Positions 1 through 14,877 of a DNA stretch of 14,877 nt are shown one piece after another. Source of the stretch: a virus (taxonomy: Duplodnaviria; Heunggongvirae; Uroviricota; Caudoviricetes); the IMG/VR virus record IMGVR_UViG_2703718796_000007; one strand, given 5' to 3'. The translations under genes and the position numbers were made by a program. Within the stretch, counting starts at the first letter, position 1. Every line of letters starts with the position of its first letter. The notes under the pieces were generated by a model. It made no database searches and was not told the origin of the DNA. It saw only the letters and a program-made list of their open reading frames with translations.

Positions 1-1218
1 ATGAACAAACTGAGCGATACCTTGCTAAGGAAACTTCATGGTAAGCCAGCGGAGAAAAACACGTTTTATAGCGATGGCGGAAATCTGAGCGTGAAATATT
101 TAACATCAGGGAAATTAACCTGGTATTTCACTTACAGGGCAGGAACGGGAAGAGAGACACGACCGGAACGTATTAAGCTGGGAAATTATCCTGATCTGAG
201 CCTGAAAGCAGCCAGGGAAAAAGCCGCCCAGTGTCGCGCATGGCTGGCGGAGGGGAAAAATCCACGCCATGAGATGAATTACGCCGTACAGGAAGCGTTA
301 AAGCCGGTAACGGTTGGCGATGCGCTCACCTACTGGCTTGAGTCGTACGTAAAGGAAAACCGCGTGGATTATATCGCCCTGAAAAGGCGACTTAATAATC
401 ACGTAATACAGTACATTGGCGCTATGCCGCTGGATAAATGCGAGCTACGGCACTGGCTGGCCTGTTTTGACCAGGTGGCAAAGCGAACACCTGTTACTGC
501 CGGATTCGTGCTACAGACATGCAAGCAGGCGCTTAAGTTCTGCCGGAGGCGGCGCTTTGCAATCAGCAACGTTCTCGATGATCTGAACGTGGCGGACGTT
601 GGGAAAAAACCGGATATAAGCGAACGTGTCTTAAGCACCAAAGAACTGGGCGAGTTATTGCAGGCGCTGGATAAAAAAATATTTTCTCCTTACTACGTCG
701 CGTTAATCCGCCTCCTGATTGTCTTCGGAGCCAGGACGGTAGAACTGAGGTTATCGGAGATCAGCGAGTGGGATTTTACCGAAATGCTATGGACCGTTCC
801 GAAGGAGCACAGCAAAACAAAGGTTGCAATATTCCGGCCCATACCGGAAGCGATCCTGCCGTTCGTCACGCGGCTGGTGGACCAGAACAGGCACACGGGC
901 TTATTACTGGGGGAAGTGAAACAGGAGGCCAGCGTATCGCAGTACGGCAGATTAGCGCACAGGAGGCTAAAACACCCTCAATGGTCATTGCATGACATCC
1001 GGCGCACCTTTACAACCATGCTGAACGATTTAGGCGTTGATCCTCACGTCGTGGAGCAGCTTACAGGCCACCAGATGCCAGGAATGCAACGCGTGTACAA
1101 CCATTCCCGCTATATTGATGCGAAACGCAATGCGCTTGATATGTGGGTGGAGCGGTTGGAGATACTGGCGGGAACACATGAAAACGTAACCACGCTACCA
1201 GTAACCAGAATAAAATAA
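1..1218 (+). CDS. int: Tyrosine integrase, P4-like family with N-terminal arm-binding domain
   Basis: 405-aa ORF starting at window position 1. N-terminus LSDGGNLSVKY...YRAGTGRETRPERIKLGNYPDLSLKAAREKA fits the P4-family arm-binding domain pattern. C-terminal region has box I Arg (GARTVELRL), HDIRRTF (H-x-x-R) and a terminal Tyr context (VYNHSRY). Confidence 0.9.
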   Translation: MNKLSDTLLRKLHGKPAEKNTFYSDGGNLSVKYLTSGKLTWYFTYRAGTGRETRPERIKLGNYPDLSLKAAREKAAQCRAWLAEGKNPRHEMNYAVQEALKPVTVGDALTYWLESYVKENRVDYIALKRRLNNHVIQYIGAMPLDKCELRHWLACFDQVAKRTPVTAGFVLQTCKQALKFCRRRRFAISNVLDDLNVADVGKKPDISERVLSTKELGELLQALDKKIFSPYYVALIRLLIVFGARTVELRLSEISEWDFTEMLWTVPKEHSKTKVAIFRPIPEAILPFVTRLVDQNRHTGLLLGEVKQEASVSQYGRLAHRRLKHPQWSLHDIRRTFTTMLNDLGVDPHVVEQLTGHQMPGMQRVYNHSRYIDAKRNALDMWVERLEILAGTHENVTTLPVTRIK

Positions 1219-1266
1219 TTTTTTTCGTGTTTTTTCAGTATGCGCATACTGGATAAGTGCACAGAT

Positions 1267-1306
1267 ACAACGTGAAACAATGTGCAACAACGTGACACAA
1301 TCACGA
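1267..1306. repeat. Four phased 10-bp repeats (ACAA-NGTGN-N), two containing AACAACGTG
   Basis: acaacgtgaa / acaatgtgca / acaacgtgac / acaatcacga in tandem with a 10-bp period, about 50 bp after the int stop. The 9-mer is the reverse complement of CACGTTGTT found at 7181-7189 and 14618-14626. Confidence 0.5.
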
Positions 1307-1407
1307 ACAAGAGGCCAAAAAGAATACAGATTTGTAAGTTGCTGATTTTTAATGCTCAGCTGGTTTTTTATACATTAGTGAATTACGCGTTAAAGCGTGC
1401 GAAAAAA

Positions 1408-1430
1408 GGCATAAAACAAGATTTTATGCC
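1408..1430. terminator. AT-rich hairpin flanked by an A-run and a T-run (possible bidirectional terminator between int and alpA)
   Basis: GGCATAAAA-caaga-TTTTATGCC: 9-bp stem, 5-nt loop, preceded by aaaaaa and followed by tttgtatt. Confidence 0.35.
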
Positions 1431-1582
1431 TTTGTATTAACATGAATTTAAATGATTTTATCCTGATTATTCCTCTTTCTGTAAACCATACGACATCAAC
1501 ATTTGCCATTCACCACACTAGCGGGAACAATACGACACAATAAGACACCTGATGACTCTTTAAGAAACGAAAGGGGGCAATA

Positions 1583-1771
1583 GTGTTAAGCACTGATCGG
1601 TTTATACGTGAAAAAGAATGCGAAAAGCTAACAGGCCTTAGCCGCTCATGCCGCTACCGCCTGGAAAAGGCCGGACAATTCCCATCACGTCGTAAACTTG
1701 GTGGGCGTTCTGTTGGCTGGTCTTTATCTGAGGTTTTGGCCTGGAAGGATAGCTGCAAGGCAGTTCACTAA
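1583..1771 (+). CDS. alpA: AlpA/Vis-family transcriptional regulator (winged-helix, excisionase-like)
   Basis: 62 codons; GTG start 5 nt after a GGGGG Shine-Dalgarno. LTGLSRSCRYRLEKAGQFPSRRKLGGRSVGWSLSEVLAW matches the AlpA family pattern. Confidence 0.85.
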   Translation: MLSTDRFIREKECEKLTGLSRSCRYRLEKAGQFPSRRKLGGRSVGWSLSEVLAWKDSCKAVH

Positions 1772-1911
1772 AAAGACTGGCGGCACACAGTCGCCACACA
1801 TCCACTAATACAGAGATATAACTATGAAGATTGAATATGCGCCCGAACGTGGGCGGGGATTCGTTCGCCCTGGTGAAACTGAAAAACAACAAAATTGGGG
1901 TTTTTCAGGCA

Positions 1912-1939
1912 TAAAAAAAGCGGCCCCGATATGGAGCCG
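1912..1939 (-). terminator. Rho-independent terminator ending the leftward RHH operon
   Basis: On the minus strand: GCGGCTCC-atatc-GGGGCCGC (8-bp stem with one G-U pair) followed by TTTTTTT (plus-strand A-run 1912-1918). Confidence 0.6.
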
Positions 1940-2014
1940 CCTTTCTGAACAATTAACCTGCTGCGCCTTATGTGTATGTGATCCCAAACATAAGCACGGG
2001 AATGATAGCCGCTA

Positions 2015-2218
2015 TCAGGCTGGTGGGCAATTACCTTGCTTGTTGGGGCCGTATTGTGCTGCCATTTTCATCCGTTCAGAACGTGAATATTTTTTTAGAA
2101 ACTCATCAAGGACAAAAGCGCATGGAGCGAATCTTTCTGATTCATGCTCGAGCGCCATATTTTCGTGCTCTCTGTTCGTTTTTTGCGATGGTGTATTGGT
2201 TGATTCTTTATTGGTCAT
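2015..2218 (-). CDS. Hypothetical 67-aa protein, cassette-1 partner (paralog of 2675..2902)
   Basis: Protein-like ORF. Shares the MTN start and the motif F-x-L-[DE]-[DE]-F-x-x-K-Y-x-R with 2675..2902 (FVLDEFLKKYSRSE versus FALEDFVDKYPRRL). Confidence 0.5.
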   Translation of the reverse strand: MTNKESTNTPSQKTNREHENMALEHESERFAPCAFVLDEFLKKYSRSERMKMAAQYGPNKQGNCPPA

Positions 2219-2275
2219 TGTGTGTACCTGTAAAGCAATGCGCCGGAGTTCCTCACGCCACGGCGCTGATGTTTT
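2219..2275. repeat. Conserved intergenic block, copy 1 (core 2227..2271), between the RHH stop and the partner start
   Basis: cctgtaaagcaatgcgccgGAGTTcctcacgccacggcgctgatg matches 2911..2955 at 43 of 45 positions, while the flanking coding sequences have diverged. Contains the inverted repeat GCGCCG...CGGCGC. Confidence 0.8.
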
Positions 2276-2470
2276 TTATTCTTTGGGTTCAATACCGCGT
2301 TGCTGTAATTCTTTTCGGATTATTCGTTTTATCCAAGCAGCTAAAGAGTCATCACCGTCTTGTTGTTGTGCTTTTTCCATCTTTTCCCGTAAGTCAGGAT
2401 CTAAACGGAACTGGAAAGGAGGATTACCACGCCTTTCATTTTTGTGTGTTGACACGTCAATTACACCCAT
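2276..2470 (-). CDS. Ribbon-helix-helix (Arc/MetJ-like) DNA-binding protein, cassette 1
   Basis: 64 aa; basic N-terminal tail then FQFRLDPDLREKMEKAQQ...SLAAWIKRIIRKEL, the beta-strand plus two-helix pattern typical of RHH repressors. Confidence 0.6.
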   Translation of the reverse strand: MGVIDVSTHKNERRGNPPFQFRLDPDLREKMEKAQQQDGDDSLAAWIKRIIRKELQQRGIEPKE

Positions 2471-2475
2471 ATAAT
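2449..2475 (+). promoter_or_regulatory. Candidate sigma70 promoter, rightward (copy 1 of a duplicated control region)
   Basis: TTGACA (2449-2454), 15-bp spacer, TATAAT (2470-2475). The spacer is shorter than optimal. Followed directly by a palindromic operator. Confidence 0.35.
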
Positions 2476-2481
2476 GTGTTT

Positions 2482-2497
2482 ATGTGTATATACACAT
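2482..2497. promoter_or_regulatory. 16-bp perfect palindrome operator ATGTGTATATACACAT
   Basis: Perfect dyad symmetry immediately downstream of the -10 hexamer; same TGTG...CACA half-sites as the TGTGCGCACA sites at 3184-3264. Confidence 0.5.
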
Positions 2498-2510
2498 TAC
2501 ACACAACTAG

Positions 2511-2555
2511 CACAAAAAACAACGCCCCGCAGTGATGGGAACACATACGGGGCGT
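2511..2555 (-). terminator. Rho-independent terminator on the minus strand (copy 1 of a conserved hairpin block)
   Basis: Stem ACGCCCCG / CGGGGCGT (8 bp, 18-nt loop); on the minus strand it is followed by TGTTTTTTG. Lies between the two minus-strand cassettes. Confidence 0.55.
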
Positions 2556-2674
2556 CTAACCAAACCATTAATTGAGGTAACGATTATGGCTATAAAAGAG
2601 CATAGCTTACTCTTTATACACACACAAACGCCCCGGAAACGGAATAATCCGTTTCATAGTTCGGTTTTGTGCAC

Positions 2675-2902
2675 TCATCCTGGCGGTCGGTTTTTGCCGG
2701 ATTTAAGCCGCCGTGGGTATTTATCGACAAAATCTTCAAGGGCAAATTTTTCTGGTGGCACTAAGCGCGGCGCTGGTGGTGGTATTTTTGTTCTGGTTAG
2801 TTCTTCCTCAAGTCTGGCGCAGGCTTCTGACTGCCTTTGCCGAATGATTTCATCTTCTTGCGTCTGCGTGTCTTGTATTGGTGATAGTGTGTTGTTGGTC
2901 AT
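2675..2902 (-). CDS. Hypothetical 75-aa protein, cassette-2 partner (paralog of 2015..2218)
   Basis: Protein-like ORF; shared MTN start and F-x-L-E-D-F-x-x-K-Y motif with 2015..2218; Pro-rich central segment. Confidence 0.5.
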   Translation of the reverse strand: MTNNTLSPIQDTQTQEDEIIRQRQSEACARLEEELTRTKIPPPAPRLVPPEKFALEDFVDKYPRRLKSGKNRPPG

Positions 2903-2959
2903 GGTACTGCCCTGTAAAGCAATGCGCCGTAGTACCTCACGCCACGGCGCTGATGGTGG
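2903..2959. repeat. Conserved intergenic block, copy 2 (core 2911..2955)
   Basis: cctgtaaagcaatgcgccgTAGTAcctcacgccacggcgctgatg; see copy 1 at 2219..2275. Confidence 0.8.
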
Positions 2960-3157
2960 TTATTCCTGCTCTTTGGCCTTGCGGCGCTGTTCATATTTTA
3001 ATTTGCGTCCACAGGCATCTAAGACCCATGCGGAAAAATTAGCACTAGGATTAGTTAATTTTTCTTGTTCAACGCTGGCATCAATCCCATCTATAAGCTC
3101 ATGTGGGAATCGAATATTTTTCTTTGCTGATTTGTTGTTTGTGTTACCACTAGACAT
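2960..3157 (-). CDS. Ribbon-helix-helix DNA-binding protein, cassette 2
   Basis: 65 aa; IRFPHELIDGIDASVEQEK...NFSAWVLDACGRKL fits the RHH beta-strand plus helices pattern. GAGGTG Shine-Dalgarno 5 nt before the ATG on the minus strand. Confidence 0.55.
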   Translation of the reverse strand: MSSGNTNNKSAKKNIRFPHELIDGIDASVEQEKLTNPSANFSAWVLDACGRKLKYEQRRKAKEQE

Positions 3158-3183
3158 TGATGCACCTCACTTAAATGGACTTT

Positions 3184-3264
3184 ATGGGCGCACACAATAC
3201 AGCAAAAAAAATGAGATGTTAAGTATTGACATGTGCGCACACATGATTTTAATCTGTGCGCACA
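3184..3264. promoter_or_regulatory. Divergent control region with three TGTGCGCACA-type palindromic operators and a rightward sigma70-like promoter
   Basis: TGGGCGCACA (3184-3193), TGTGCGCACA (3232-3241) and TGTGCGCACA (3255-3264). The last two are 23 bp apart and bracket the promoter TTGACA (3226-3231), 16-bp spacer, TTTAAT (3248-3253). A possible leftward promoter TTGCTG...TAAAGT lies near 3175-3205 on the minus strand. Confidence 0.55.
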
Positions 3265-3292
3265 GTTTGAGTTTTGTCACTCAAATTAAGCA

Positions 3293-3326
3293 ACGCCCCG
3301 CAGTGCTCGCAACACATGCAGGGCGT
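3293..3326. other. Conserved hairpin block, copy 2, in the 5' leader of the rightward operon
   Basis: ACGCCCCG...CAGGGCGT (one mismatch in the stem), then CTAACCA and GAGGTA-N4-ATG; parallels 2520-2588, where the same block precedes an ATG at 2586. Confidence 0.5.
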
Positions 3327-3362
3327 CTAACCACCAACGATAGCGAAAGTATCGAGGTAGCT

Positions 3363-3563
3363 ATGAGAAATAATACCACACACCCGCAAGGGCGGGACTC
3401 GCACAACCTGAATAAATACATCTGGCGTTTTATCGCCCTGAGCACGGCACAACCGCGCGTGATTACCATTGAGGCCACCAGCGAACAGGAAGCACGCCAG
3501 CAATCCCCGGCTGGCTGCGTGATGGTATTCGCTGCCCGTATTCGCCAGGGGGTAGGCTTATGA
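3363..3563 (+). CDS. Hypothetical 66-aa protein, first gene of the rightward early operon
   Basis: ATG 4 nt after GAGGTA; shares its stop with the next gene's start (ATGA overlap at 3560). Family not recognised. Confidence 0.5.
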   Translation: MRNNTTHPQGRDSHNLNKYIWRFIALSTAQPRVITIEATSEQEARQQSPAGCVMVFAARIRQGVGL

Positions 3564-4042
3564 GCCAGGAAATCACACTACAACAGGCAGCAGAACGCGC
3601 CCACCAAATCGAAGTTATTTGCGCACTGGCAGAGGATTACCCTGGCATGATGACCGACAGCGAATCAGGGGCAATCATCGGCTTACTTAAACGCCTTAGC
3701 GGTGAGGTCTGCGTATTCCTGAGCGATGAACAGGAAAGAAGAACGCTTATTTCTAACGAAAAAAATGCGGAGGGGTACACCATGTGCAATAACATCCGTC
3801 CGGACGCAACCGCCGCCGCGCTCACTACGCTGATGCTCGCGCTTATTGATATTTCTGTTATTGCTGACAGGGCACATAAGCACGCCACCAGTGAAACAGA
3901 ATATGCCGGGGCTTTCGTTCCTCATTCGCTGGCGGTTATGCAACTTAGTGCTGATATGGCGCTGAATGAGGCCAAAGCTATCCTGATTGCTGATTGTGAA
4001 AATGGGGGGGGGTTATGCGTGATGATCGTTTTAATTCCCTGA
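3560..4042 (+). CDS. Hypothetical 160-aa protein
   Basis: ORF translationally coupled to its neighbours. The 3' end runs through a G9 tract (4004-4012), so the C-terminus is uncertain. Confidence 0.5.
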   Translation: MSQEITLQQAAERAHQIEVICALAEDYPGMMTDSESGAIIGLLKRLSGEVCVFLSDEQERRTLISNEKNAEGYTMCNNIRPDATAAALTTLMLALIDISVIADRAHKHATSETEYAGAFVPHSLAVMQLSADMALNEAKAILIADCENGGGLCVMIVLIP

Positions 4043-4248
4043 AACAAGAATTTTCCGGCGTTCCTGATGATGCGGCTGATGCGCTTTCGTCAATGCCAGA
4101 ACTTATTAGAGCGGCTTTTTTCTTACTTTCCACGAAAGAATATAAATCAACGGGACTTGATGTACTGAATATCGCCGCCGATTATGCGGAATATGTGGCA
4201 GAGGCGCGTTACAGAAGAAAATTTCCTGAGGATGTAAGCCATGCGTGA
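4015..4248 (+). CDS. Hypothetical 77-aa acidic protein
   Basis: ATG directly after the G9 tract, which could serve as its Shine-Dalgarno; 8-nt overlap with the next gene. Confidence 0.45.
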   Translation: MRDDRFNSLKQEFSGVPDDAADALSSMPELIRAAFFLLSTKEYKSTGLDVLNIAADYAEYVAEARYRRKFPEDVSHA

Positions 4249-4474
4249 TATTTACATTGAAACAATAGACCGCGCATTTAGTGCCCTTGCTTACGCTGAA
4301 GGTATGTACGAAATATTGCAAATGTGGCTGGAAACATTTGGCGATAATGAGAGTGATGTAAAGAAGGCGCGGATTATTAAATCACTGATAACTCTCCTTG
4401 AACCTGTAATAACAGAGTTGCAGGAAATAGACTTATTGCACGACAGATATAACGAACAGCACACCGGAGAATAA
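4241..4474 (+). CDS. Hypothetical 77-aa protein
   Basis: ORF in operon context; start overlaps the preceding stop. Confidence 0.5.
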   Translation: MRDIYIETIDRAFSALAYAEGMYEILQMWLETFGDNESDVKKARIIKSLITLLEPVITELQEIDLLHDRYNEQHTGE

Positions 4475-4479
4475 AAATA

Positions 4480-4779
4480 ATGAAACTTAAATATTCTGGC
4501 TTAACTGCCAGTGGCAACACTCACCCTAAATTTACGCGCGGTGATATTTACCGCGACCAGTACGGCGGCACGGTAATGATTAAGGGCGTGGCGGGACGGT
4601 GCGTAACTTACCGCCGTGAAGGTTACGAATATGATTGCGTGATGCCTGTTTATCAGTTCCGGCGTGATTTTTCTCTGGTACAGGCCGTACCGCGTAACGT
4701 GCCCACCAGCAGGGAGAAAGCACGCGCCAATATTCAGAAGATGAAAAACATGATTAACGGATTCAGGGGCAAGAAATGA
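4480..4779 (+). CDS. Small conserved prophage protein (possibly DUF4222-like)
   Basis: GGAG Shine-Dalgarno 8 nt upstream. RGDIYRDQYGGTVMIKGV...VTYRREGYEYDCVMPVYQF resembles a small family common in enterobacterial prophages; the family name is from memory and tentative. Confidence 0.55.
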   Translation: MKLKYSGLTASGNTHPKFTRGDIYRDQYGGTVMIKGVAGRCVTYRREGYEYDCVMPVYQFRRDFSLVQAVPRNVPTSREKARANIQKMKNMINGFRGKK

Positions 4780-6173
4780 AAAGCGCACCGAACTTAAAAA
4801 AACAGCCTTACGACAAGATGACCGAAGTCATCATTTTTGCGGGTAGTGATGCGTGGGCACATGCGAAACAGTGGCAGGAACAGGACGGGCGACTGGCTGG
4901 CGATAATTTGCCTCCCATTGTGCTGGCTGATGATCAACTGGATGAACTGGCAGACCTGAGAATCATCGACGAGGGGCGCTATTGTGTCCGGCTGTACAAG
5001 GCAGGCCACATCAGGCCATCAAATATTAATGCCATTGCGCACAAGCTGGCGGCGGCGGGCGTAACTGATGCGAATTATTACCCCGAAGGGATACACAGCC
5101 AGAAGCGGGAGAACTGGCGCGAATATCTGGAACGGGAGCGGGGGAAAAAGCCAGGGGAAGAACACCACCAGCGAAAAACCACGCTACCGATGAGCGTTGG
5201 ATCTGCCGGATACGACACGCAATTAGATTACGTGGTAAAGGGGATTATTCCGGCATCGTCGCTATGCAGCATATACGGGGCAAGCGGTTCCTATAAATCA
5301 TTCCTTGCTGGTTCGTGGGCGTGTCACGTTTCCACGGGCCGCCAGTGGGGAGGCCGCAGGGTGGCGCATGGCGCTGTTCTCTATGTGGTTGGTGAAGGCG
5401 GTATCGGCGTTCCGCGTCGTGTAAAAGCCTGGGAGGTTGTGCACGGTGAGCAGGTGAAAAATCTGTATCTGGTAAACCGTCCCATCTTTCCGGCTGTCCC
5501 GCTTGATGTTGATGAACTGGTTATTGCTGCCAGTCAGGTGGAGAGGGAAACGGGTAAACCTGTTCGCATGATTATTCTGGACACGCTGGCGCGCTGCTTT
5601 GGCGGCAATGATGAAAATGACTCCCGCGACATGGGGGCGTTTATCCGTGGGTGTGACGAACTGAAACGACGCACAGGGGCCACGGTGCTGGTGGTTCACC
5701 ATTCCGGCAAGGATGAGACGAAAGGCGCGCGCGGTTCCAGTGCATTTCGTGCATCACTGGATGCTGAATACCGGATACGCAGGGAGGACGCAGGAAGCGA
5801 AGCGCTGGTTATCTCATGCACCAAAATGAAGGACGCGGAGGAACTCAAAGAGGCTGCCTATGATTTGCGGGTGGTGGAGCTTTTTACCGACGCTGACGGG
5901 GAGTTAATCACGTCGCTGGTGGTGGTGGATAAGCCGCGCCCTCCCGTTGAACTGGAGCGCATCGAGGAGGCAGGGAACAAGACGGAAAACCATACCGCGC
6001 TATGGGGGTGCATCCGTTCACGCACACAGAACGGCGACAAGTGCACGATCCCGCTGTTACGTGATGACATGAAAAAACTGGGGTATGAAATGAAAAACTT
6101 CCGGCGCTGGCTGTACAAGCTGGAAAAAGATGGGGTTATTCGTATCGATGGGGATGATGTAGCGCCGCTATAA
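4776..6173 (+). CDS. Replication initiator: RepA-like / AAA_25-type RecA-fold ATPase (helicase loader or helicase) with an N-terminal extension
   Basis: 465 aa. Walker A-like YGASGSYKSFLAG; Walker B MIILDTLARCFGG; the VLVVHHSGKD motif typical of RepA/AAA_25 proteins. Followed immediately by iterons. Confidence 0.85.
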   Translation: MKSAPNLKKQPYDKMTEVIIFAGSDAWAHAKQWQEQDGRLAGDNLPPIVLADDQLDELADLRIIDEGRYCVRLYKAGHIRPSNINAIAHKLAAAGVTDANYYPEGIHSQKRENWREYLERERGKKPGEEHHQRKTTLPMSVGSAGYDTQLDYVVKGIIPASSLCSIYGASGSYKSFLAGSWACHVSTGRQWGGRRVAHGAVLYVVGEGGIGVPRRVKAWEVVHGEQVKNLYLVNRPIFPAVPLDVDELVIAASQVERETGKPVRMIILDTLARCFGGNDENDSRDMGAFIRGCDELKRRTGATVLVVHHSGKDETKGARGSSAFRASLDAEYRIRREDAGSEALVISCTKMKDAEELKEAAYDLRVVELFTDADGELITSLVVVDKPRPPVELERIEEAGNKTENHTALWGCIRSRTQNGDKCTIPLLRDDMKKLGYEMKNFRRWLYKLEKDGVIRIDGDDVAPL

Positions 6174-6364
6174 AAGTGAGGAGCAAAAGCGAGGGGGGTA
6201 GAAAGAGGGCCAAAATTAGCCTGCTCTCCCTCACTTTTCGACCTGTATACATCCTCAAAAGTGAGGGGTAAAAAAATACTTATGAAACACACGCATAGAA
6301 AAACCAAAAATCCCAACTGCGACGAAGTGAGACGCTTGAAAAAGTGAGGCGAAAAAGTGAGAGG
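6172..6364. repeat. Iteron-type replication origin: at least six copies of AAAAGTGAGG-like repeats in both orientations flanking an A-rich segment
   Basis: Copies at 6172-6181, 6185-6194 (aaaagcgagg), 6229-6238 (inverted), 6257-6266, 6340-6349 and 6353-6364, plus a degenerate gaagtgaga at 6324-6332. A-rich stretch at 6268-6312. Position directly 3' of the rep gene is typical of satellite origins. Confidence 0.65.
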
Positions 6365-6927: not shown

Positions 6928-6936
6928 GGTGGCAAT

Positions 6937-7098: not shown

Positions 7099-7120
7099 GA
7101 ATATCAGAACCACACCATAC

Positions 7121-7150
7121 AGCCGGAGCAATCCGGCTTTTTGTTATTTT
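7121..7150 (+). terminator. Rho-independent terminator closing the early/replication operon
   Basis: AGCCGGA-gcaa-TCCGGCT followed by TTTTTGTTATTTTTT. Confidence 0.7.
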
Positions 7151-7402: not shown

Positions 7403-8560
7403 ATGCCGAGAATAATCGAATTACGCCAGCAGAAAACCGCCATTAAAAATCAGATGCGCGACATGCTGGAGAACGCTGAAAAAGAAAACCGCAGTCTTAA
7501 CGATGCTGAGGGCGCAAAATTTGACGAATTACGCGCTAAAGCTGAATCCCTCGATAAAGACATTTCCCGCCTTGAAGCCATTGCAGACGAAGAGCGCAGC
7601 AAGCCAGGTAAAAGCAGTCAGACCACTGACCCCGCAGAACTACGAAACTACATTCTGACGGGTGAAACCCGCGCATTAAGTACAGGCGTTCCCGCTGATG
7701 GTGGTTATACCGTTATCCCCGAACTGAACACCGAAATCATGCGAATGCTGGCGGATGAATCCACCATGCGCCGCATCTGTACCGTGAAGAAAATCAGCAG
7801 CAACGAGTTTAAGCAGCTTGTTTCCGCTGGCGGTGCGACCGTTAACCACGGTGAAGAGGGTAAGGCACGCGAACAGACCAGCACCCCGCAGATTAACGAG
7901 GTGAGCATTAAGCTGTATCCGGTCTATGCGTACCCGCGCACCACACAGGAAATCGTGGATTTTTCCGATGTGGACATCCTTTCATGGCTGACGGGCGAGA
8001 TTGGCGACACCTTCACGGAAACCGAAGAAAGCGATCTGGTTGTGGGCGACGGTGACAAAAAAGCAAAAGGCTTTTTATCCGTACCCCGTGCAGAGAAGAA
8101 CGACAAAGAGCGTGATTTTGGTACGTTGCAGGTAATTAAACCTTCCGAATCTCTGGCGTGGACATCTGCGGACCCGCTGATCGACCTGAAATTTGCATTA
8201 CGTAAAAAATACCGCAAGAACGCGGTATGGGTGGTTAACTCCACGACGGCGGCAAAACTCCAGAAGGTGAAGAATGCGAACGGGGATTATATATGGCGTG
8301 ACCGTTTACAGGCGGGTGATCCTGATACGTTGCTGGGCCTTCCGGTCGAATATCTGGAGTTTATGCCGGATAACGTTATTGCCCTGGGCGACTTTAAACG
8401 CGGTTACTACATCGTTGATCACGAAACAGGTGTTCGCACCAGACCGGACAACCTGACAGAACCAGGATTCATCAAAATTTTCACGCAAAAATATTTAGGC
8501 GGTGGCGTGGTGGATTCGAACGCGATCAAGATTCTGGAACTGCCACAGGACGACGATTAA
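7403..8560 (+). CDS. Major capsid protein, HK97 fold, with an N-terminal coiled-coil (scaffold-like delta) region
   Basis: 385 aa. N-terminal about 100 residues are charged and coiled-coil-like (ELRQQKTAIKNQMRDMLENAEKE...); the body contains VVGDGDKKAKGFL, matching the HK97 MCP family motif NGDGTG..L.GL. ATG at 7403 preferred over the TTG at 7358. Confidence 0.85.
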   Translation: MPRIIELRQQKTAIKNQMRDMLENAEKENRSLNDAEGAKFDELRAKAESLDKDISRLEAIADEERSKPGKSSQTTDPAELRNYILTGETRALSTGVPADGGYTVIPELNTEIMRMLADESTMRRICTVKKISSNEFKQLVSAGGATVNHGEEGKAREQTSTPQINEVSIKLYPVYAYPRTTQEIVDFSDVDILSWLTGEIGDTFTETEESDLVVGDGDKKAKGFLSVPRAEKNDKERDFGTLQVIKPSESLAWTSADPLIDLKFALRKKYRKNAVWVVNSTTAAKLQKVKNANGDYIWRDRLQAGDPDTLLGLPVEYLEFMPDNVIALGDFKRGYYIVDHETGVRTRPDNLTEPGFIKIFTQKYLGGGVVDSNAIKILELPQDDD

Positions 8561-8570
8561 CAGCATACAG

Positions 8571-8600
8571 AAGGGGCTAAAAAGCCCCTTTAGTGTTTTA
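8571..8600 (+). terminator. Hairpin with weak T-tract between the capsid and protease genes (possible partial terminator)
   Basis: AAGGGGCT-aaaa-AGCCCCTT followed by tagtgtttta. Confidence 0.45.
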
Positions 8601-8615
8601 TGGGTGAAAAAAATT

Positions 8616-9173
8616 ATGAAGAGTATGGAAATCCGGTCATCGGAAATCACCACCAGCGCCAGCAACACGCTTACAGGCTACGTTGTTCGCTGGGATAACC
8701 TTTCGGAACTGTTATGGGGGGAGTTTTACGAAAAATTCCAGCGGGGGGCGTTTACTGAGTGGCTTGCGGCGGGTAATGACGTTCGCGGCCTGTATGAGCA
8801 TGACCACAGCATGTTACTGGGGCGTACCCGTTCCGGCACGCTGAAACTGGAAGAGGACGAAACAGGGTTACGCTTTGAACTGACCCCACCGGATACCAGC
8901 ACAGGGCGGGACGTTATCGAACTGGTTAAACGTGGTGATATATCCGGCATGAGCTTTGGCTTTCGTTCCCGTAAGGATGTATGGGATACCACAACAGAAC
9001 CATGCGTGCGCACCGTGCTGGTGGCGGAACTGTACGAAATTACCGTTACATCCGTTCCGGCTTACCCTGATTCCGGCGTGGAGCTGGCCCGCCGTTCCCT
9101 GTATGAGCAGCACCCCGAAAAAATGCCGCGTGCGGATAATCGCCGCTGGTGGGTGGATTTAGCGGGGGTGTGA
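8616..9173 (+). CDS. Prohead maturation protease, HK97 family (S78-like)
   Basis: 185 aa. GLYEHDHSMLLGRT...LEEDETGL...GDISGMSFGF fits the HK97 prohead protease His and Ser motif context. In-frame ATG at 8616 (alternative 8625) chosen over the longer ORF from 8502. Confidence 0.8.
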   Translation: MKSMEIRSSEITTSASNTLTGYVVRWDNLSELLWGEFYEKFQRGAFTEWLAAGNDVRGLYEHDHSMLLGRTRSGTLKLEEDETGLRFELTPPDTSTGRDVIELVKRGDISGMSFGFRSRKDVWDTTTEPCVRTVLVAELYEITVTSVPAYPDSGVELARRSLYEQHPEKMPRADNRRWWVDLAGV

Positions 9174-9174
9174 T

Positions 9175-10386
9175 ATGTGGCCTTTCAGAAGAAAAAAAGA
9201 GCAGCGCAGCATGACGCTTGATGAATTTATGGCGCTGGCTGGCACATCGAACACGGGGGCGGGTGAGTACGTATCATCGGGGACAGCGGAATCACTGCCC
9301 GCCGTCATGAACGCCGTCACGGTCATCTCTGAGGCGGTGGCTACCATGCCGTGTTACCTGTACCTGGTACGCAATGAGAAGGGGAAGGAGGCCCGCGAGT
9401 GGCTTGATTCTCATCCGGTCGATCACATCCTCAACGAGCGCCCGAACGCATGGCAAACCCCCTACCAGTTTAAGCGAATGATGATCCGCCACTGCCTGTT
9501 AAACGGTAATGCTTATGCGGTGATTCAGTGGGGGCGTGATGGTTTTCCGGCGGCTTTACATCCTTACCCGCCGCAGTCGGTGAACGTGGAGCAGACAGGA
9601 GAACACAACTGGCGCTATTGCATCACTGACGCCTACACCGGAAACACCCGCAACTATTTACCGTGGGAAGTACTTCACCTTCGTTACTCCACGGATGACG
9701 GCTTTATGGGGCGCTCACCTGTAACCATCTGCCGCGAATCGCTGGGGCTTGGGCTGGCCCAACAACGCCACGGCGCGAGCGTGATGCGTGATGGCATGAT
9801 GGCGGCAGGGGTTATCACGTCAGGCGAATGGCTGGACGGCGTGAAAGGCAAACAGGCATTAGCCGCACTGGAACGCTACAAAGGGGCCAGAAACGCCGGA
9901 AAAACGCCCATCCTTGAAGGGGGCATGAGTTACCAGCAGCTGGGCATGAGTAACCAGGACGCCGAATGGCTGGCCTCCCGTCGCTTCACCATTGAAGACA
10001 TCGCCCGAATGTTCAACGTCTCGCCGATTTTTCTGCAGGAATACAGCAACAGCACCTACAGCAATTTCAGCGAGGCAAGCCGCGCATTTCTCACCATGAC
10101 GATGCGCCCGTGGCTGGCGAACTTTGAGCAGCAGATAAAAAACGCCTTGCTGGTGGTCTCGCCTGTACCTGGTATCCGGTATCAGGTGGAGTTTGACAGC
10201 GCGGACCTGTTACGGGCCACACCTGGCGAACGCTTTGCCACCTATGAGCGAGGCATCAAATCCGGTGTTATGTGCCCGAACGAAGCCCGCGAACGAGAAG
10301 GGTTGTCTCCGCGTGATGGTGGTGATGAGTTCAGCCAGGCATGGAAACAGGAAGTAAAAATCAGCGAGGGAGAAAAACCGGAATGA
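9175..10386 (+). CDS. Portal protein, HK97 family
   Basis: 403 aa; size, position and composition fit phage portal proteins. GGGGG Shine-Dalgarno 6 nt upstream; 2-nt gap after the protease stop. Confidence 0.8.
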   Translation: MWPFRRKKEQRSMTLDEFMALAGTSNTGAGEYVSSGTAESLPAVMNAVTVISEAVATMPCYLYLVRNEKGKEAREWLDSHPVDHILNERPNAWQTPYQFKRMMIRHCLLNGNAYAVIQWGRDGFPAALHPYPPQSVNVEQTGEHNWRYCITDAYTGNTRNYLPWEVLHLRYSTDDGFMGRSPVTICRESLGLGLAQQRHGASVMRDGMMAAGVITSGEWLDGVKGKQALAALERYKGARNAGKTPILEGGMSYQQLGMSNQDAEWLASRRFTIEDIARMFNVSPIFLQEYSNSTYSNFSEASRAFLTMTMRPWLANFEQQIKNALLVVSPVPGIRYQVEFDSADLLRATPGERFATYERGIKSGVMCPNEAREREGLSPRDGGDEFSQAWKQEVKISEGEKPE

Positions 10387-10721
10387 ACATAGGGCGACTG
10401 CGTGACAGGGTAACGATTCAGACCCTGAAACAGACCAGAGCCATGACGGGCGAAATACTCGAAACGTGGGAGGACGGTCACACACTCTGGGCAAGCGTGA
10501 ACATGGTCAGCAGCAAGGAGGCCATTTCATCGGGTGCAGAGCTGGCGATTGGTACCGTAAGGATCTGGATACGGTACCGGAAGGACATCAACGCCACCAG
10601 CCGGATAAAGGTCAATACGGGGCCGCTGGCGGGGCGTGTACTGAATATCATCGGGCAGCCGCTGCCGGATGCCGCCAGGACACGCCTTGAAATTCTTTGT
10701 CGTGAGGGCGCGGAAAAATGA
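10383..10721 (+). CDS. Head closure / head-tail joining protein
   Basis: 112 aa from the ATGA overlap with the portal stop. GRLRDRVTIQ...LWASVNMVSSKEAISSGAELAIGTVRIWIRYRKDI...RVLNIIG matches the head-tail joining family pattern. Confidence 0.75.
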   Translation: MNIGRLRDRVTIQTLKQTRAMTGEILETWEDGHTLWASVNMVSSKEAISSGAELAIGTVRIWIRYRKDINATSRIKVNTGPLAGRVLNIIGQPLPDAARTRLEILCREGAEK

Positions 10722-11014
10722 CAGAAGAACTTATCACCCTGGAAGAAGTGAAACTCCATTGCCGCATCGATGGCGACGAGGAAGACCAGTTAATCAGCGG
10801 ATACATTGCCGCATCGCTTGAGGCGTGCCAGATACACATAGGCAGGCGCTTTGATGACGGGCTGGAGTTCACGCCAGCCATAAAGATTGGCTGCATGATG
10901 TTTATCGCTCACCTGTATGAGAATCGCCAGATTGTCGCGGATAACGCAAAAACACACGTACCCATGACGATTGGCGCACTCTGGACGGCTTACCGTGATG
11001 TGGGGGTGTACTGA
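10718..11014 (+). CDS. gp6-like head-tail connector (adaptor) protein
   Basis: 98 aa; LITLEEVKLHCRIDGDEEDQLISGYIAAS...FIAHLYENRQ matches the gp6-like connector pattern. Confidence 0.75.
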   Translation: MTEELITLEEVKLHCRIDGDEEDQLISGYIAASLEACQIHIGRRFDDGLEFTPAIKIGCMMFIAHLYENRQIVADNAKTHVPMTIGALWTAYRDVGVY

Positions 11015-11454
11015 TGCCGTGGCAACCATTAAGACGATGTACAGAACCAGGCTGCAACAGGCGCGTGAAGTCCGGCAAGTGTGAGGAGCACAGACGCAGC
11101 GCACGCCAGCAGCAGGACAGCCGGAGAGGCAGCAGCAGGGAGCGAGGGTATACGAGGCAGTGGGAGAAATACCGCGCCATGTATCTGAGTAAAAACCCGT
11201 TATGTGCGCATTGCCTGGAAAAAGGAATATACACGCCCGCCGTGGTGGTGGATCACATTATCCCAATCGATGGCGGTAATGATGTTCTCTTCTGGCCTGA
11301 GTGGAATCATCAGCCATTGTGCCAGGCGTGTCATAACCAGAAAACGAAATGGCTTGATCCGTCCACAAAAAACAAGCGTGCTGCGGGTGGATTCCGTGAG
11401 GAGGAAGAACGGGCCGCTAACCGCAATAACTGGATGTATGGCGCTGATGAATGA
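11014..11454 (+). CDS. HNH endonuclease (packaging-associated)
   Basis: 146 aa. CAHCLEKGIYTPAVVVDHIIPIDGGNDVLFWPEWNHQPLCQACHNQK is an HNH motif with Cys pairs; it sits immediately upstream of terS/terL, as in cos-type HK97-like packaging modules. Confidence 0.85.
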   Translation: MPWQPLRRCTEPGCNRRVKSGKCEEHRRSARQQQDSRRGSSRERGYTRQWEKYRAMYLSKNPLCAHCLEKGIYTPAVVVDHIIPIDGGNDVLFWPEWNHQPLCQACHNQKTKWLDPSTKNKRAAGGFREEEERAANRNNWMYGADE

Positions 11455-11620
11455 GCGGGAACAAAACCGCCTTATCCGTGGACTTATAAGGCAGCGTGAC
11501 GCATGGAAGGCACAGGAAACAGGGCATAAAGATAAAGCATCAGGACGCGCAGAACGCATCACAGCGACGCGATTAAACGACCGTGACCGCGAGGTTATGG
11601 AATGTTTCCGCAATCGCTGA
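11438..11620 (+). CDS. Possible small basic protein (60 aa) between HNH and terS
   Basis: In-frame ATG inside the longer ORF 11204..11620; overlaps the HNH 3' end by 17 nt. No recognisable RBS; weakly supported. Confidence 0.25.
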   Translation: MALMNEREQNRLIRGLIRQRDAWKAQETGHKDKASGRAERITATRLNDRDREVMECFRNR

Positions 11621-11630
11621 TGAGGCAGCC

Positions 11631-11673
11631 GGACGGGGTGGGGGGAGTTTTCAGGACGAACCCGACCCCGCCC
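11631..11673. other. Candidate cos / terminase recognition site (G-rich and C-rich imperfect dyad)
   Basis: GGACGGGGTGGGGGG (11631-11645) and CCCGACCCCGCCC (11661-11673) form an imperfect inverted repeat in the HNH-terS gap, followed by A/T tracts. The position is typical for cos in HNH-dependent packaging systems. Confidence 0.35.
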
Positions 11674-11742
11674 AGAACCGAACGCCTCCTCAAATTTTTA
11701 TGCACGGGAATTTTTTGAAAAATAATCTGGCGAAAAATAAGC

Positions 11743-12099
11743 ATGTCAAGACCACCGAAAGCCCCCGCCTACCTGGATGATATCGCCGTGAAGCAGTGGC
11801 GGGAAAAATCTAGGCAGCTTGCGGAACGGGGAGACCTGACCCCCGCCGACTGGAGCAATCTGGAACTGTATTGTGTCAACTACTCCATTTACCGGAAAGC
11901 CGTTGCAGACCTTGCGGCGCGCGGGTTCAGCATTGTTAACAGTCAGGGCGGCGAGAGCAGAAACCCCGCATTAAGCGCAAAATCCGACGCTGAAAGAGTG
12001 ATGATAAAAATGGCCTCCTTGCTCGGTTTTGACCCGATAAGCCGCCGTAAAAATCCACCGGAAACAGAAGAAGAGGACGAGCTTGACCGCCTGGAATAA
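11743..12099 (+). CDS. terS: Terminase small subunit, P27 family
   Basis: 118 aa; LTPADWSNLELYCVNYSIYRKA...NPALSAKSDAERVMIKMASLLGFDPISRRK matches the P27-type TerS pattern; acidic C-terminus. Confidence 0.8.
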   Translation: MSRPPKAPAYLDDIAVKQWREKSRQLAERGDLTPADWSNLELYCVNYSIYRKAVADLAARGFSIVNSQGGESRNPALSAKSDAERVMIKMASLLGFDPISRRKNPPETEEEDELDRLE

Positions 12100-13744
12100 G
12101 TACGCAGAAGACGTAAAAACGGGCAAAATTCCGGCCTGTAAACGGCTGAAACAGGCCGTTAAACGGTACTTTTCGGACCTTGAAAGCCCCCTTTACACGT
12201 TCGATCGTGAGGTTGTGGAGCGGTTTATTGCCTTTTCCAGGGTGTGCCCGCACGTAAAAGGGCCGATGCGTGGCAGACCCATTGAGCTGGAGCCGTGGCA
12301 GCAGTTCGCCTTTGCGTGCATCCTCGGCTTTAAGGTTAAGGCCACCGGACGGCGCAAATACACGAGCGCCTTTATCGAAGTGCCGCGCAAAAATGCGAAA
12401 TCCACGACCGCCGCGATTCTGGCTAACTGGTTTCTGATTATGGAGAACGGGCAGCAGGATATTTACACCGCAGCGGTGAGCCGTGACCAGGCGCGGATCG
12501 TTTTTGATGATGCGCGTCAGATGTGCCTTTTATCCCGACCGTTACGCAGGCGGGTGAATATTCAGGCCCACAAGGTGATGCACCCGAAAAGCAACAGCCT
12601 GTTAAAGCCGCTGGCAGCAAAAGCGGCAACCATCGAGGGCACAAACCCCAGCCTTTCCATCGTGGACGAATACCACCTACACCCCGATAACGGCGTTTAT
12701 TCCGCGCTTGAGCTGGGGATGGGCGCACGTCCCGAAGGGCTGTTATTTGCCATTACCACATCGGGCAGTAACGTCGTTTCAGCCTGTAAGCAGCACTATG
12801 ATTATTGCTGCCAGATCCTGGACGGCGAAGAGGTCAACGATTCAATTTTTGTACTGATTTACGAGCTGGACGACGAAAACGAGGTTGATGATCCGGCGAT
12901 GTGGATAAAGGCTAACCCTAACATCGATGTTTCCGTGGATCGTGAAAAACTGGCCTCAACCATCCAGAAAGCGCGGGGTATTCCGTCGCAATGGGTGGAG
13001 ATGATGACAAAGCGATTTAATATCTGGTGCCAGGGGGCTACCCCGTGGATGGGTAACGGCGCATGGGCTGAGTGTGCCGGAACGTTCACGGAGGAAGATT
13101 TACACGGGCAGGAGTGTTACGCGGGGCTGGACTTATCATCAACCAGCGATATTTCCAGCGTGTGCTATGCCTTTCCGGTCGGTAAAAATATCATGCTGGT
13201 TTCCCGTCATTATCTGCCGGAGTTCCAGCTACAGAACCCCGCCAATAAAAACCGCGCTGTCTATCGCCAGTGGGCTAAAGCGGGCTGGATACGCACAACG
13301 CCAGGTGACTGCATTGATTACGACCGGATCAGAGATGACATCATGCAGGATGCGGAGAAATTTAATATCAGGCTGGTGGGCTTTGATACGTGGAACGCCA
13401 CGCATCTCAGGACGCAATTACAGGGGGCAGGCTTTGAGGTGGAGCCGTTCCCGCAAACCTACCTCAGATTCAGTCCGGCGGCGAAATCGTTCGAAGTTTT
13501 TGTTAACCGCAGGGTGATTGTGCATCGTGGCGATCCGGTGTTGTCCTGGTCGATGAGTAACGTCGTGATGCAGAGTGACGCGAACGCCAATATCAAGCCG
13601 AACAAGAAAAAATCACCGAACAAGATAGACCCGAGCGTAGCTGCGCTGATGGCGTTTGGTACATTCCAGGCAGAGCATGAGGATTTTGCTTTTGATATAA
13701 GCGACAGCCACCGCCAGAAACTGGAAGAATTTAGCGGGGTGTAA
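12083..13744 (+). CDS. terL: Terminase large subunit
   Basis: 553 aa; Walker A-like VPRKNAKST in the N-terminal ATPase domain and a C-terminal nuclease-domain-sized region; overlaps the terS end by 17 nt. Confidence 0.9.
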   Translation: MTAWNKYAEDVKTGKIPACKRLKQAVKRYFSDLESPLYTFDREVVERFIAFSRVCPHVKGPMRGRPIELEPWQQFAFACILGFKVKATGRRKYTSAFIEVPRKNAKSTTAAILANWFLIMENGQQDIYTAAVSRDQARIVFDDARQMCLLSRPLRRRVNIQAHKVMHPKSNSLLKPLAAKAATIEGTNPSLSIVDEYHLHPDNGVYSALELGMGARPEGLLFAITTSGSNVVSACKQHYDYCCQILDGEEVNDSIFVLIYELDDENEVDDPAMWIKANPNIDVSVDREKLASTIQKARGIPSQWVEMMTKRFNIWCQGATPWMGNGAWAECAGTFTEEDLHGQECYAGLDLSSTSDISSVCYAFPVGKNIMLVSRHYLPEFQLQNPANKNRAVYRQWAKAGWIRTTPGDCIDYDRIRDDIMQDAEKFNIRLVGFDTWNATHLRTQLQGAGFEVEPFPQTYLRFSPAAKSFEVFVNRRVIVHRGDPVLSWSMSNVVMQSDANANIKPNKKKSPNKIDPSVAALMAFGTFQAEHEDFAFDISDSHRQKLEEFSGV

Positions 13745-13757
13745 TGAGGTCAGCAGC

Positions 13758-14039
13758 ATGACAGAAGCCGAAATACTGGGATTAATCCGCCGCGTCTCTG
13801 GAATCAGCCAGCAGCATGACGAACAGGGCACGCAACCGGACAGCGTGACCGCTGAAAATTATGCGCGTGTTGTTGCTGAGGTGATGCGCCGTGATGGTAT
13901 TGAGCTTAACGGCGTGGATATGCGCAACATACGAACCAGAGTCCTTGAGTTGCTGGCATACCGTCGCCGCGTGGAGATGTATCGGGAGAAGGAGAAAATC
14001 ACGTACCACTGGAAGAAGCCGGAGCGGTTACGGCGGTAA
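13758..14039 (+). CDS. Hypothetical 93-aa protein, last gene of the packaging operon
   Basis: GAGG Shine-Dalgarno 8 nt upstream; basic C-terminus. Family not recognised. Confidence 0.5.
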   Translation: MTEAEILGLIRRVSGISQQHDEQGTQPDSVTAENYARVVAEVMRRDGIELNGVDMRNIRTRVLELLAYRRRVEMYREKEKITYHWKKPERLRR

Positions 14040-14121
14040 CTCACTGAGATTAAAGCAAAGCGCGAAATTGCGCTGGCTGAATGATCATTATGATTACTTA
14101 TGTTTACGCAGATGATTAAGG
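14032..14121. repeat. Long direct repeat, copy 1, containing the stem-loop AGCGC-GAAATT-GCGCT and the palindrome AATGATCATT
   Basis: ggcggtaact...ttaaagcaaagcgcgaaattgcgctggctgaatgatcattatgattac[ttatgtttac]gcagatgattaagg; near-identical to 14164..14243 apart from a 10-bp insertion. Confidence 0.8.
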
Positions 14122-14163
14122 CCTAAACCGTTGATTATTCACAATCCCCCATTGGGGGAAGCT

Positions 14164-14243
14164 GGCGGTAACTGGTTGAACTTAAAGCAAAGCGCAAAAT
14201 TGCGCTGGCTGAATAATCATTATGATTACGCAGATGATTAAGG
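14164..14243. repeat. Long direct repeat, copy 2
   Basis: ggcggtaact...ttaaagcaaagcgcaaaattgcgctggctgaataatcattatgattacgcagatgattaagg. Confidence 0.8.
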
Positions 14244-14282
14244 AATGACCGAAGGCGGAAATTCGCCTGTGGTTGATGGGGG

Positions 14283-14302
14283 GAGTTGCAGATCTGCAAC
14301 TC
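14283..14302. repeat. 20-bp perfect palindrome GAGTTGCAGATCTGCAACTC, centred on GATC
   Basis: Exact dyad symmetry read from the sequence, within a 430-bp non-coding stretch dense with other inverted repeats (for example 14253-14268, 14379-14399, 14403-14426). Confidence 0.8.
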
Positions 14303-14608
14303 GACCATGAAATTACGGAAACTACCCGTAGTTTGGGTAGTAAGAGCAACACCCAGATTTTGGGGCTTACTCGTGATACCCAAATTTGGGGTATCGGCGG
14401 CAACCATAACGACTTTCGTTACGGTTGATGCTTTTACCCCATTGAGGGAAAGGTATTACGATAATCATAACACCTACCGAACAGGTAAAGCCCACCAGCC
14501 TGATTAACTGTTAACCGGAAAAAAATTCCGGTAGGGTTCCCGATATGGGAATCCCCATATCGACAGCAACGCCCCCTTAAAATTACCCGCCTTTATATTT
14601 CTTGTGCC

Positions 14609-14626
14609 TATTTGTTCCACGTTGTT
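14609..14626. repeat. 18-bp motif TATTTGTTCCACGTTGTT, also present at 7159..7189 with a 9-bp internal insertion
   Basis: Direct comparison: 7159-7189 is tatttgttc[gtggttgtt]ccacgttgttcac; 14609-14626 is tatttgttccacgttgtt. Confidence 0.7.
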
Positions 14627-14724
14627 TCATACAGTGCGCCGAACGGTGTAGTCACTGGTGTAGTTATTTTGAGTTTTTTTGCACTTCGGGCTTAATTGAA
14701 AATATAATTAAATCAATATGTTAT

Positions 14725-14877
14725 TCAAAATAAGTTATATATAACAGCAATAAATAATGCGAGAATAAACGGCACGATGATCTCGGCGGCAAAACGGATA
14801 CCGCAGAGAATAATGACCAGCATTCCCAACATAATGACGATTTTTAGGCCATTGAGCGTGATGATCGGCTTTGCCAT
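14725..14877 (-). CDS. tqsA: Truncated inner-membrane protein ORF (50 aa) at the element's right junction; first 45 residues match the N-terminus of TqsA/YdgG as I recall it
   Basis: Minus-strand ORF starting at the window edge: [45 protein letters not shown] followed by IYNLF and a stop. The identification is from memory and unverified. Confidence 0.45.

Follow-up and report, generated by a model that had tools for sequence, protein, structure and literature searches.

What kind of element carries a complete set of head and packaging genes and no tail or lysis genes? The question is raised by the virus record IMGVR_UViG_2703718796_000007, a stretch of 14,877 nucleotides that we refer to in its entirety as the window. 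An initial annotation, made from the letters alone, had proposed a capsid-forming phage-inducible chromosomal island (cf-PICI). Islands of this family, with EcCIEDL933 as prototype, make their own small capsid, package with their own HNH, TerS and TerL proteins, and need only the tails of a phage (Alqurainy et al., bioRxiv 10.1101/2022.09.08.507074). Our analysis bears this proposal out: the window very probably represents an intact cf-PICI of the EcCIEDL933 lineage, about 14.94 kb long, that was inserted by its tyrosine integrase into the Escherichia coli gene tqsA at the core ATAACAGCA. Every defining feature of a cf-PICI that can be examined in sequence was found, and window positions 7116-14041, which hold the head and packaging module, are 95.8% identical in nucleotide sequence to EcCIEDL933. 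The novelty of the element had been set too high, since the family was described in 2022/23 and the lineage is its type lineage; the element is thus already known.

The head and packaging module is complete

Genes were called from profile searches against Pfam, NCBIfam and PHROGs, and compared with the annotated genes of relatives. They form an almost unbroken series on the plus strand across the window, and all genes of the head and packaging module lie on that strand. The module opens with an HK97-fold major capsid protein (MCP; 7403-8560; Pfam Phage_capsid, E 2e-61; NCBIfam HK97 equivalog), which is 99.5% identical in amino acid (aa) sequence to that of EcCIEDL933. It also matches a chain of PDB entry 9GYI over its full length (E 1e-255), with 383 of 385 residues identical and two substitutions; 9GYI is the EcCIEDL933 capsid, a T=4 shell of 47.5 nm, at 3.24 Å. 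An HK97-family prohead serine protease follows (8616-9173; Peptidase_S78, TIGR01543), 93.5% identical to the EcCIEDL933 protease over 200 aligned residues, and then a portal (9175-10386; 99.0% aa identity to the prototype), a head closure protein or head-tail adaptor (10383-10721; Phage_HCP, TIGR01563; 96.8%) and a gp6-like head-tail connector (10718-11014; 99.0%). All five proteins scored above the Pfam and NCBIfam cut-offs and are full length relative to their EcCIEDL933 counterparts.

The packaging genes come next, so that the element has its own HNH, TerS and TerL, another of the marks of a cf-PICI. They comprise an HNH endonuclease (11014-11454; Pfam HNH), a protein that acts as a packaging cofactor in HK97-type cos systems, a small terminase of the P27 family (TerS; 11743-12099; Pfam, NCBIfam; 99.2% aa identity to the prototype) and an intact large terminase (TerL; 12083-13744; TerL_ATPase and TerL_nuclease, phrog_9; 98.2%). 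Between HNH and TerS lie a conserved open reading frame (ORF) of 60 aa (11438-11620; phrog_3173, E 1e-34), also annotated in the relative L001 and in EDL933, and a G+C-rich spacer (11621-11742). Cohesive ends have been reported for cf-PICIs, and this spacer, judged by its position upstream of terS, is the probable cos region. A conserved ORF of 93 aa (13758-14039; phrog_1561; no PADLOC match) follows terL.

The gene order capsid, protease, portal, connectors, hnh, terS, terL is the one described for proteobacterial cf-PICIs. The cfPICI model of SatelliteFinder has 11 core components, forbids tails and holins, and has detected such islands in 13% of genomes from Enterobacteriaceae (de Sousa et al., PMC10085698). 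All 11 components are intact here: int, alpA, rep, MCP, protease, portal, head closure, connector, HNH, TerS and TerL. The gene set named by the initial annotation is present in full, each member at full length in the Pfam, NCBIfam and PHROGs searches.

The same annotation had reported no tail or lysis genes, and in this too it was right. No ORF of the window matched a tail, tape-measure, baseplate, fibre, holin or endolysin family in Pfam or PHROGs, and among the other ORFs, down to about 105 aa, none had a PHROG match. Annotated genes cover 83% of positions 1-14740, with a largest gene-free gap of 701 bp, and there is no room in the element for a tail module.

Degraded head and packaging genes would have told against this proposal. 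We calculated dN/dS relative to the prototype and obtained values of 0.02-0.04 for MCP, protease, portal, TerS and TerL, which indicates strong purifying selection. The head and packaging genes are at full length, and with such values these five are being maintained and are no remnants.

The left arm is of the PICI type

On the plus strand, the left part of the element begins with a tyrosine integrase gene (1-1218; Pfam Arm-DNA-bind_3 and Phage_integrase; gene calls of the relative L008). Its annotated start lies 12 nt upstream of window base 1, and its product is 90% identical to EcCIEDL933 Int by tblastn. The gene for an excisionase-type regulator, alpA, follows (1583-1771; phrog_2790, E 2e-17; 96.8% aa identity to EcCIEDL933 AlpA). 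Further on, an Icd-like gene (3363-3563) is the first of an early and replication operon, in which four small early genes (3560-4779; orf160, two orf77 genes and a DUF4222 gene), like the Icd-like gene assigned through PHROGs, precede a 465-aa replication initiator/helicase of the RepA family (4776-6173; Pfam AAA_25, E 3e-43; phrog_2850 over its full length). Only the N-terminal 122 aa of this protein resemble the DUF927 Rep of EcCIEDL933 (67% identity).

An iteron origin had been proposed next to RepA, and a motif count shows the feature to be real. The heptamer AAGTGAG occurs seven times in the window against about 1.0 expected, and none of 200 shuffles reached seven. Six of the seven copies, five direct and one inverted, cluster at 6174-6361, directly 3' of the RepA stop codon, where we place the putative replication origin. 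An alpA gene together with a replicase and adjacent iterons is the PICI-type left arm by which, with the head genes, a cf-PICI is recognised.

Could the element then be a satellite that needs capsid proteins from its helper, either a classical PICI or a P4-like one? Its int, alpA, Icd-like, DUF4222 and rep-type genes are held in common with such satellites. The portal, connectors and TerL, on the other hand, are forbidden components of the PICI model (PMC10085698), and among general PHROG and Pfam scans, which included no dedicated profile search, there was no match to sid, psu, delta, capsid-redirection genes or a P4 alpha-type primase. The gene content therefore already refutes this assignment, to which we give practically no chance.

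Downstream of the iterons is an accessory region on the plus strand (6374-7098; PHROGs, and blastn against L001 and EcCIEDL933) with orf83, orf101 and a remnant of ssb. The remnant ORF encodes 53 aa (6937-7098), the first 25 of which are the N-terminus of SSB. Relative to EcCIEDL933 and to relatives inserted at tqsA, about 0.5 kb with ssb and a gene for a PerC-family regulator has been deleted here (region 6926-7098). A PADLOC scan of ten accessory ORFs, which took in orf160, orf77a, orf83, orf101 and the 93-aa ORF and left out the ssb remnant, returned nothing credible, the sole match being Cas8g at 17.6 bits to a 67-aa ORF; the variable regions therefore hold no recognisable defence system.

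The element is bounded by attachment sites in tqsA

Comparison with the intact tqsA of E. coli K-12 fixed the right boundary exactly. Positions 14741-14877 are, on the minus strand, codons 1-45 of K-12 tqsA with zero mismatches (100% identity), and thus belong to the disrupted host target outside the element. In L001 and L005, complete genomes with the same insertion, the remaining part of tqsA lies immediately left of int, and 9 bp, ATAACAGCA, are common to both parts of the gene, which identifies them as the crossover core. Its attR copy, at 14741-14749, is the right end of the element, as seen from intact K-12 tqsA and the left junctions of L001 and L008. The attL copy was found in L008 and L001, 187 bp upstream of window base 1. 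With these ends the element is 14,936 bp long and the window holds nearly all of it. Of the span 1-14742 given by the initial annotation, the right end was essentially right, while the left end lies those 187 bp beyond the window. The result is a small island bounded by att sites with int at its left end, as is usual for a cf-PICI, whose size is put at about 10-15 kb.

L008 (GCA_036985005.1) differs from the window at a single nucleotide over the 14,042 window positions that it covers. Its left flank reads ydgI-ydgH-pntA-pntB-tqsA', and the right end of the window is the 5' end of tqsA, so that both flanks are ordinary chromosome. Tail or lysis genes contiguous with the module would have made it part of an ordinary prophage, as had been pointed out at the outset; neither flank contains any. 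A scan of the window found no tRNA, and the attachment site is therefore not a tRNA gene.

The split falls after codon 45 of tqsA, the AI-2 exporter gene, and the 5' fragment adds five codons from the element before a stop (14725-14877, minus strand). Carriers are presumably tqsA-null. A literature search combining tqsA with PICI found nothing.

We rejected a 21-bp repeat, CGGTGTAGTCACTGGTGTAGT, as the att core. It is internal to the element at both ends, and it is also kept, slightly changed, in EcCIEDL933, which has a different attB; its appearance is that of an arm-type site for protein binding.

These boundaries also bear on the possibility that the locus is a decayed HK97-like prophage, stripped of its tail, lysis and lysogeny modules, and not a satellite. 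The head and packaging genes do belong to a phage-type HK97 family. Against such an origin, the left arm is PICI-type (int-alpA-icd-rep) and not a phage immunity and replication region, the att junctions are exact and the same 15-kb unit is found at several att sites, and no tail or lysis remnant occurs within or beside the element. No true phage has packaging genes more than about 40% identical to these, and the near-identical prototype is a proven tail-dependent satellite. We therefore regard decay from a prophage as very improbable.

Repeat arrays mark the non-coding arms

Repeats of TTGT/CACGTTGT, phased at 10 bp, form arrays at four sites whose positions are conserved across all the lineage members examined: in the attL arm (9895-9925 of L001), in the spacer between int and alpA (1267-1310, minus strand; period 10/20 in TRF), upstream of the capsid operon (7163-7192) and in the attR arm (14600-14630). 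CACGTTGT was found four times against 0.64 expected. The array upstream of the capsid operon consists of three phased TTGTTC repeats on the plus strand, 3' of a terminator-like hairpin (7121-7138, plus strand, seen in the sequence) that, with these adjoining repeats, lies about 225 bp upstream of the operon. The distribution of the arrays would suit binding sites for AlpA or for the arm domain of Int, for which we consider them candidates.

The right arm (14040-14740) is non-coding and contains a 66-nt repeat, several palindromes, phased TTGT repeats and two GGTGTAGT repeats. A GGTGTAGT pair occurs near both ends of the element (window 14645-14664; L001 9942-9961; L006 30282-30302 and 45510-45530), and between elements with different attB sites the pair is kept and its spacer changed. 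The pair probably serves the integrase as an arm-type site, and it can be mistaken for the att core. The two copies of the 66-nt direct repeat (14032-14097 and 14164-14229) are 89% identical, each with a GC-rich palindrome (AGCGCAATTTCGCGCT or AGCGCAATTTTGCGCT), and this repeat region is partly conserved in EcCIEDL933.

The regulatory region is doubled

Between alpA and the early operon lie two divergent regulatory cassettes in tandem, linked by direct repeats of 74 nt (2208-2281/2892-2965) and 46 nt (2517-2562/3288-3333). Cassette A (2015-2562) was delimited from PHROGs matches, the sequence itself, the repeats D1 and D5 and the annotation of L001. It has two minus-strand genes, orf67 (2015-2218) and an Arc/YlcI-like gene (2276-2455), a rightward promoter with perfect TTGACA (2449) and TATAAT (2470) boxes, and a leader hairpin (2520-2562). 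The path of its rightward transcript leads into a truncated gene start (ATG at 2587) and then into a bidirectional terminator-like hairpin (about 2631-2665), so that a short leader RNA could result. Cassette B (2675-3563; phrog_949, phrog_6196, Pfam DUF3950 in L008, leader alignment) has orf75 (2675-2902) and a DUF3950 gene (2960-3157) on the minus strand, and a promoter (about 3228) from which the path runs through a leader hairpin (3291-3333) to the plus-strand Icd-like gene that opens the rep operon.

Three long plus-strand ORFs in this region (1824-2474, 1972-2535 and 2532-3563) were rejected as genes: the RefSeq relatives L001 and L005 have nothing annotated in their place, and the ORFs overlap promoters and conserved genes of the minus strand. 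Of ORF 2532-3563, the final 66 codons alone are real, and these are the icd-like gene.

A stem-loop ACGCCCCG...CGGGGCGT followed by CTAACCA is conserved in the leader upstream of Icd-like genes, including those of EcCIEDL933 and a Citrobacter relative. It lies at 2520-2562 and 3291-3333 in the window and at about 32876-32925 in L006, 12596-12645 in L001 and 5289-5335 in L014. Since five sequences yielded one covarying pair only, we make no structural claim for this hairpin. Rfam searched over the whole window at E up to 1 gave four sub-threshold matches at chance level, and no C4- or CI-type RNA.

Does the doubling have a function? Two divergent cassettes of small repressors and promoters could work together, with cassette A now making no more than a short leader RNA that ends at the bidirectional terminator and acts in trans on the homologous leader of cassette B, as P4 CI or P1 c4 RNA does. 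We think this doubtful, and clearly a long shot; if it were true, this variant would have gained RNA-based immunity or an altered specificity of helper induction, neither of which has been described for cf-PICIs. None of 5,426 complete E. coli genomes has a single stretch that covers 80% or more of 2283-3786, and the contiguous double-cassette arrangement is present in many draft assemblies. Mosaicism of this kind in the integrase-proximal half has already been reported for PICIs and cfPICIs (PMC10085698).

The sole difference from four public copies, L008-L011, over the positions shared with them concerns the promoter of cassette A. The run of C in its spacer (2466-2468) reads CCC in the window and CCCC in those copies, which gives spacers of 15 nt and 16 nt, respectively. 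An error in sequencing may account for this, or else a slight variation in promoter strength.

Distribution, mobility and decay in the lineage

Among the same 5,426 complete E. coli genomes, 361 matched the MCP gene, 359 of them at 95% nucleotide identity or more, and in 139 the window as a whole is covered to 80% or more. Public contigs that contain the exact variant number at least 24, indexed in 157 blocks. Related MCPs were found at 66-74% identity in Citrobacter, Erwinia, Rosenbergiella and Gilliamella, and a Shigella flexneri copy (L012) has an MCP gene that is 99% identical and apparently split into two ORFs. In the phage collection the nearest entries are records of 15-16.5 kb, themselves probably satellites, with at most 65% aa identity, and true phages reach about 40% at most, a distance that agrees with Alqurainy et al. 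(bioRxiv 10.1101/2022.09.08.507074). Two records deposited as phages, LR881103.1 (16,548 bp) and OR544139.1 (15,321 bp), have capsid proteins with 58-65% aa identity to the window MCP; judged by their size, they are probably cf-PICIs and not phages.

The same variant also occurs at a second site. On a metagenome scaffold (L011; ERZ28570938, 6150-6260) it is 99.55% identical over 4.7 kb, and the same core (GGATAACAGCA) here leads into another flank, a type III secretion cluster (PrgH family), the insertion lying inside a small gene whose product starts MADWNGYIMD. This junction is a secondary attachment site, and a second insertion site with the same junction implies recent integration events. 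Other relatives align only up to window position 14686 and may lie at other sites. As EcCIEDL933 is located between roxA and phoQ, the lineage uses more than one attB.

Is this copy still active?

Several points weigh against reading the window as an intact, working island. Its attL, beyond the edge of the window, could be located only through copies essentially identical to the element. The element has lost ssb and perC, its Rep differs in type from that of the prototype, its regulatory region shows a rearrangement when set beside the prototype and all complete E. coli genomes that were searched, and one of its leaders, that of cassette A, now ends in a truncated gene. Some sibling copies are damaged (a frameshift in TerL in L001, another in portal in L005 and the apparently split MCP of L012), and decay therefore does occur in the lineage. 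Function is read from homology, and none of the 17 prophages resident in its host induced EcCIEDL933 itself (bioRxiv 10.1101/2022.09.08.507074).

Many of these points are also what an inactive copy would show, that is, a cf-PICI by descent that has become a fossil, no longer inducible or transferable, in which the double cassette and the loss of ssb and perC would have uncoupled helper control. This is the only live alternative, and we consider it unlikely. For it speak the 2283-3786 arrangement, contiguous in no complete E. coli genome, the restriction of cassette A to driving a truncated gene start, the ssb remnant at 6937-7098 and the existence of frameshifted siblings. Against it, the core genes are intact without exception and evolve under purifying selection, and cassette B keeps its promoter, its leader and the icd-like gene that feeds the rep operon. 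The presence of the exact variant in public contigs and the second chromosomal site with the same junction likewise speak against a fossil.

A proposed life cycle

Gene content, intactness, boundaries, flanks, near-identity to the prototype, selection and the second site were computed here, and the steps of a life cycle were drawn by homology with EcCIEDL933; from this homology we infer induction, iteron replication, the position of cos, capsid size, tail specificity and transfer. An intact cf-PICI would be set in motion by a helper phage that switches on alpA, a gene required for the induction of EcCIEDL933 (bioRxiv 10.1101/2022.09.08.507074). AlpA and Int would then drive excision and turn on the early and late operons, and the RepA-type helicase would replicate the element from the iterons directly downstream of its own gene. 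MCP, prohead protease and portal would assemble a small T=4 head, into which HNH, TerS and TerL, cutting the element's own cos, would package one unit of about 15 kb, and the head closure and connector proteins would complete the neck.

cf-PICIs release tail-less, DNA-filled heads that can join the tails of various phages (He et al., bioRxiv 10.1101/2025.02.11.637232). The heads of this element would likewise gain siphovirus tails from a phage, either inside the cell or after release, with the phage also supplying lysis. Adaptor and connector set tail compatibility, and EcCIEDL933 uses HK106 tails (bioRxiv 10.1101/2025.02.11.637232); since the present adaptor and connector have 97-99% identity to the EcCIEDL933 proteins, we predict tails of an HK106-like type.

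By placing their own DNA-filled heads on the tails of unrelated phages ('tail piracy'), cf-PICIs move about 15 kb between strains and even genera. Calling such an element correctly prevents its annotation as a defective prophage, flags the disruption of tqsA and predicts the phages that would mobilise it (those with HK106-type tails). The biology is not new, as the family, the mechanism and the capsid structure of a near-identical element have been published. Only two points are mildly new: modules for integration, replication and regulation have been exchanged, as in a mosaic, around a packaging module that is conserved, and a second insertion lies at another site with the same core of 9 bp.

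Comparison with known systems

How does the element compare with the systems it resembles? The closest is EcCIEDL933 (NZ_CP008957.1, 1680148-1695609, in E. coli O157:H7 EDL933), with which it has its architecture and gene order in common, as well as the GGTGTAGT and phased TTGT arm motifs and the leader hairpin. EcCIEDL933 is slightly longer, at about 15.46 kb, and its attB core is GGACATATTT, in the roxA-phoQ intergenic region, whereas the window element uses the tqsA core ATAACAGCA. Int, at 90%, and HNH, at 88% identity, are among the differences. The prototype has a 710-aa DUF927 protein as Rep in place of the 465-aa RepA/AAA_25 helicase found here, and carries the ssb and perC genes that have been deleted from the window element. 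The interval between alpA and rep is largely unrelated, with two regulatory cassettes here; window 2283-3786 has no relation to the prototype.

Other cf-PICIs inserted at tqsA in complete E. coli genomes, such as those of JNE141411 (NZ_AP027256.1) and 2015C-3121 (NZ_CP027340.1), have the same attB and the same int and alpA (98% nucleotide identity over window 1-2282), and their packaging modules are 96-97% identical in nucleotide sequence. JNE141411 also has a RepA-family rep like that of the window. They differ in having one regulatory cassette only, with window 2283-3786 replaced, and in keeping ssb and perC. Frameshifts interrupt genes in several of them, among these TerL in JNE141411 and portal in 2015C-3121.

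Classical PICIs of Gram-negative bacteria (EcCICFT073, EcCIED1a) are similar in their left arm of int, alpA and rep and in the logic of AlpA-dependent induction, but they lack MCP, portal, connectors and TerL, and redirect the capsids and terminase of their helpers. The temperate siphoviruses HK97 and HK106, for their part, have an HK97-fold MCP, an S78 protease, an HK97-type portal and HNH-TerS-TerL cos packaging, as the window element does. Their proteins show low sequence identity to the counterparts in the window and their capsids are T=7, compared with T=4 predicted here by homology with 9GYI; the window element, with a genome one third the size, is without their tail, lysis and phage immunity modules.

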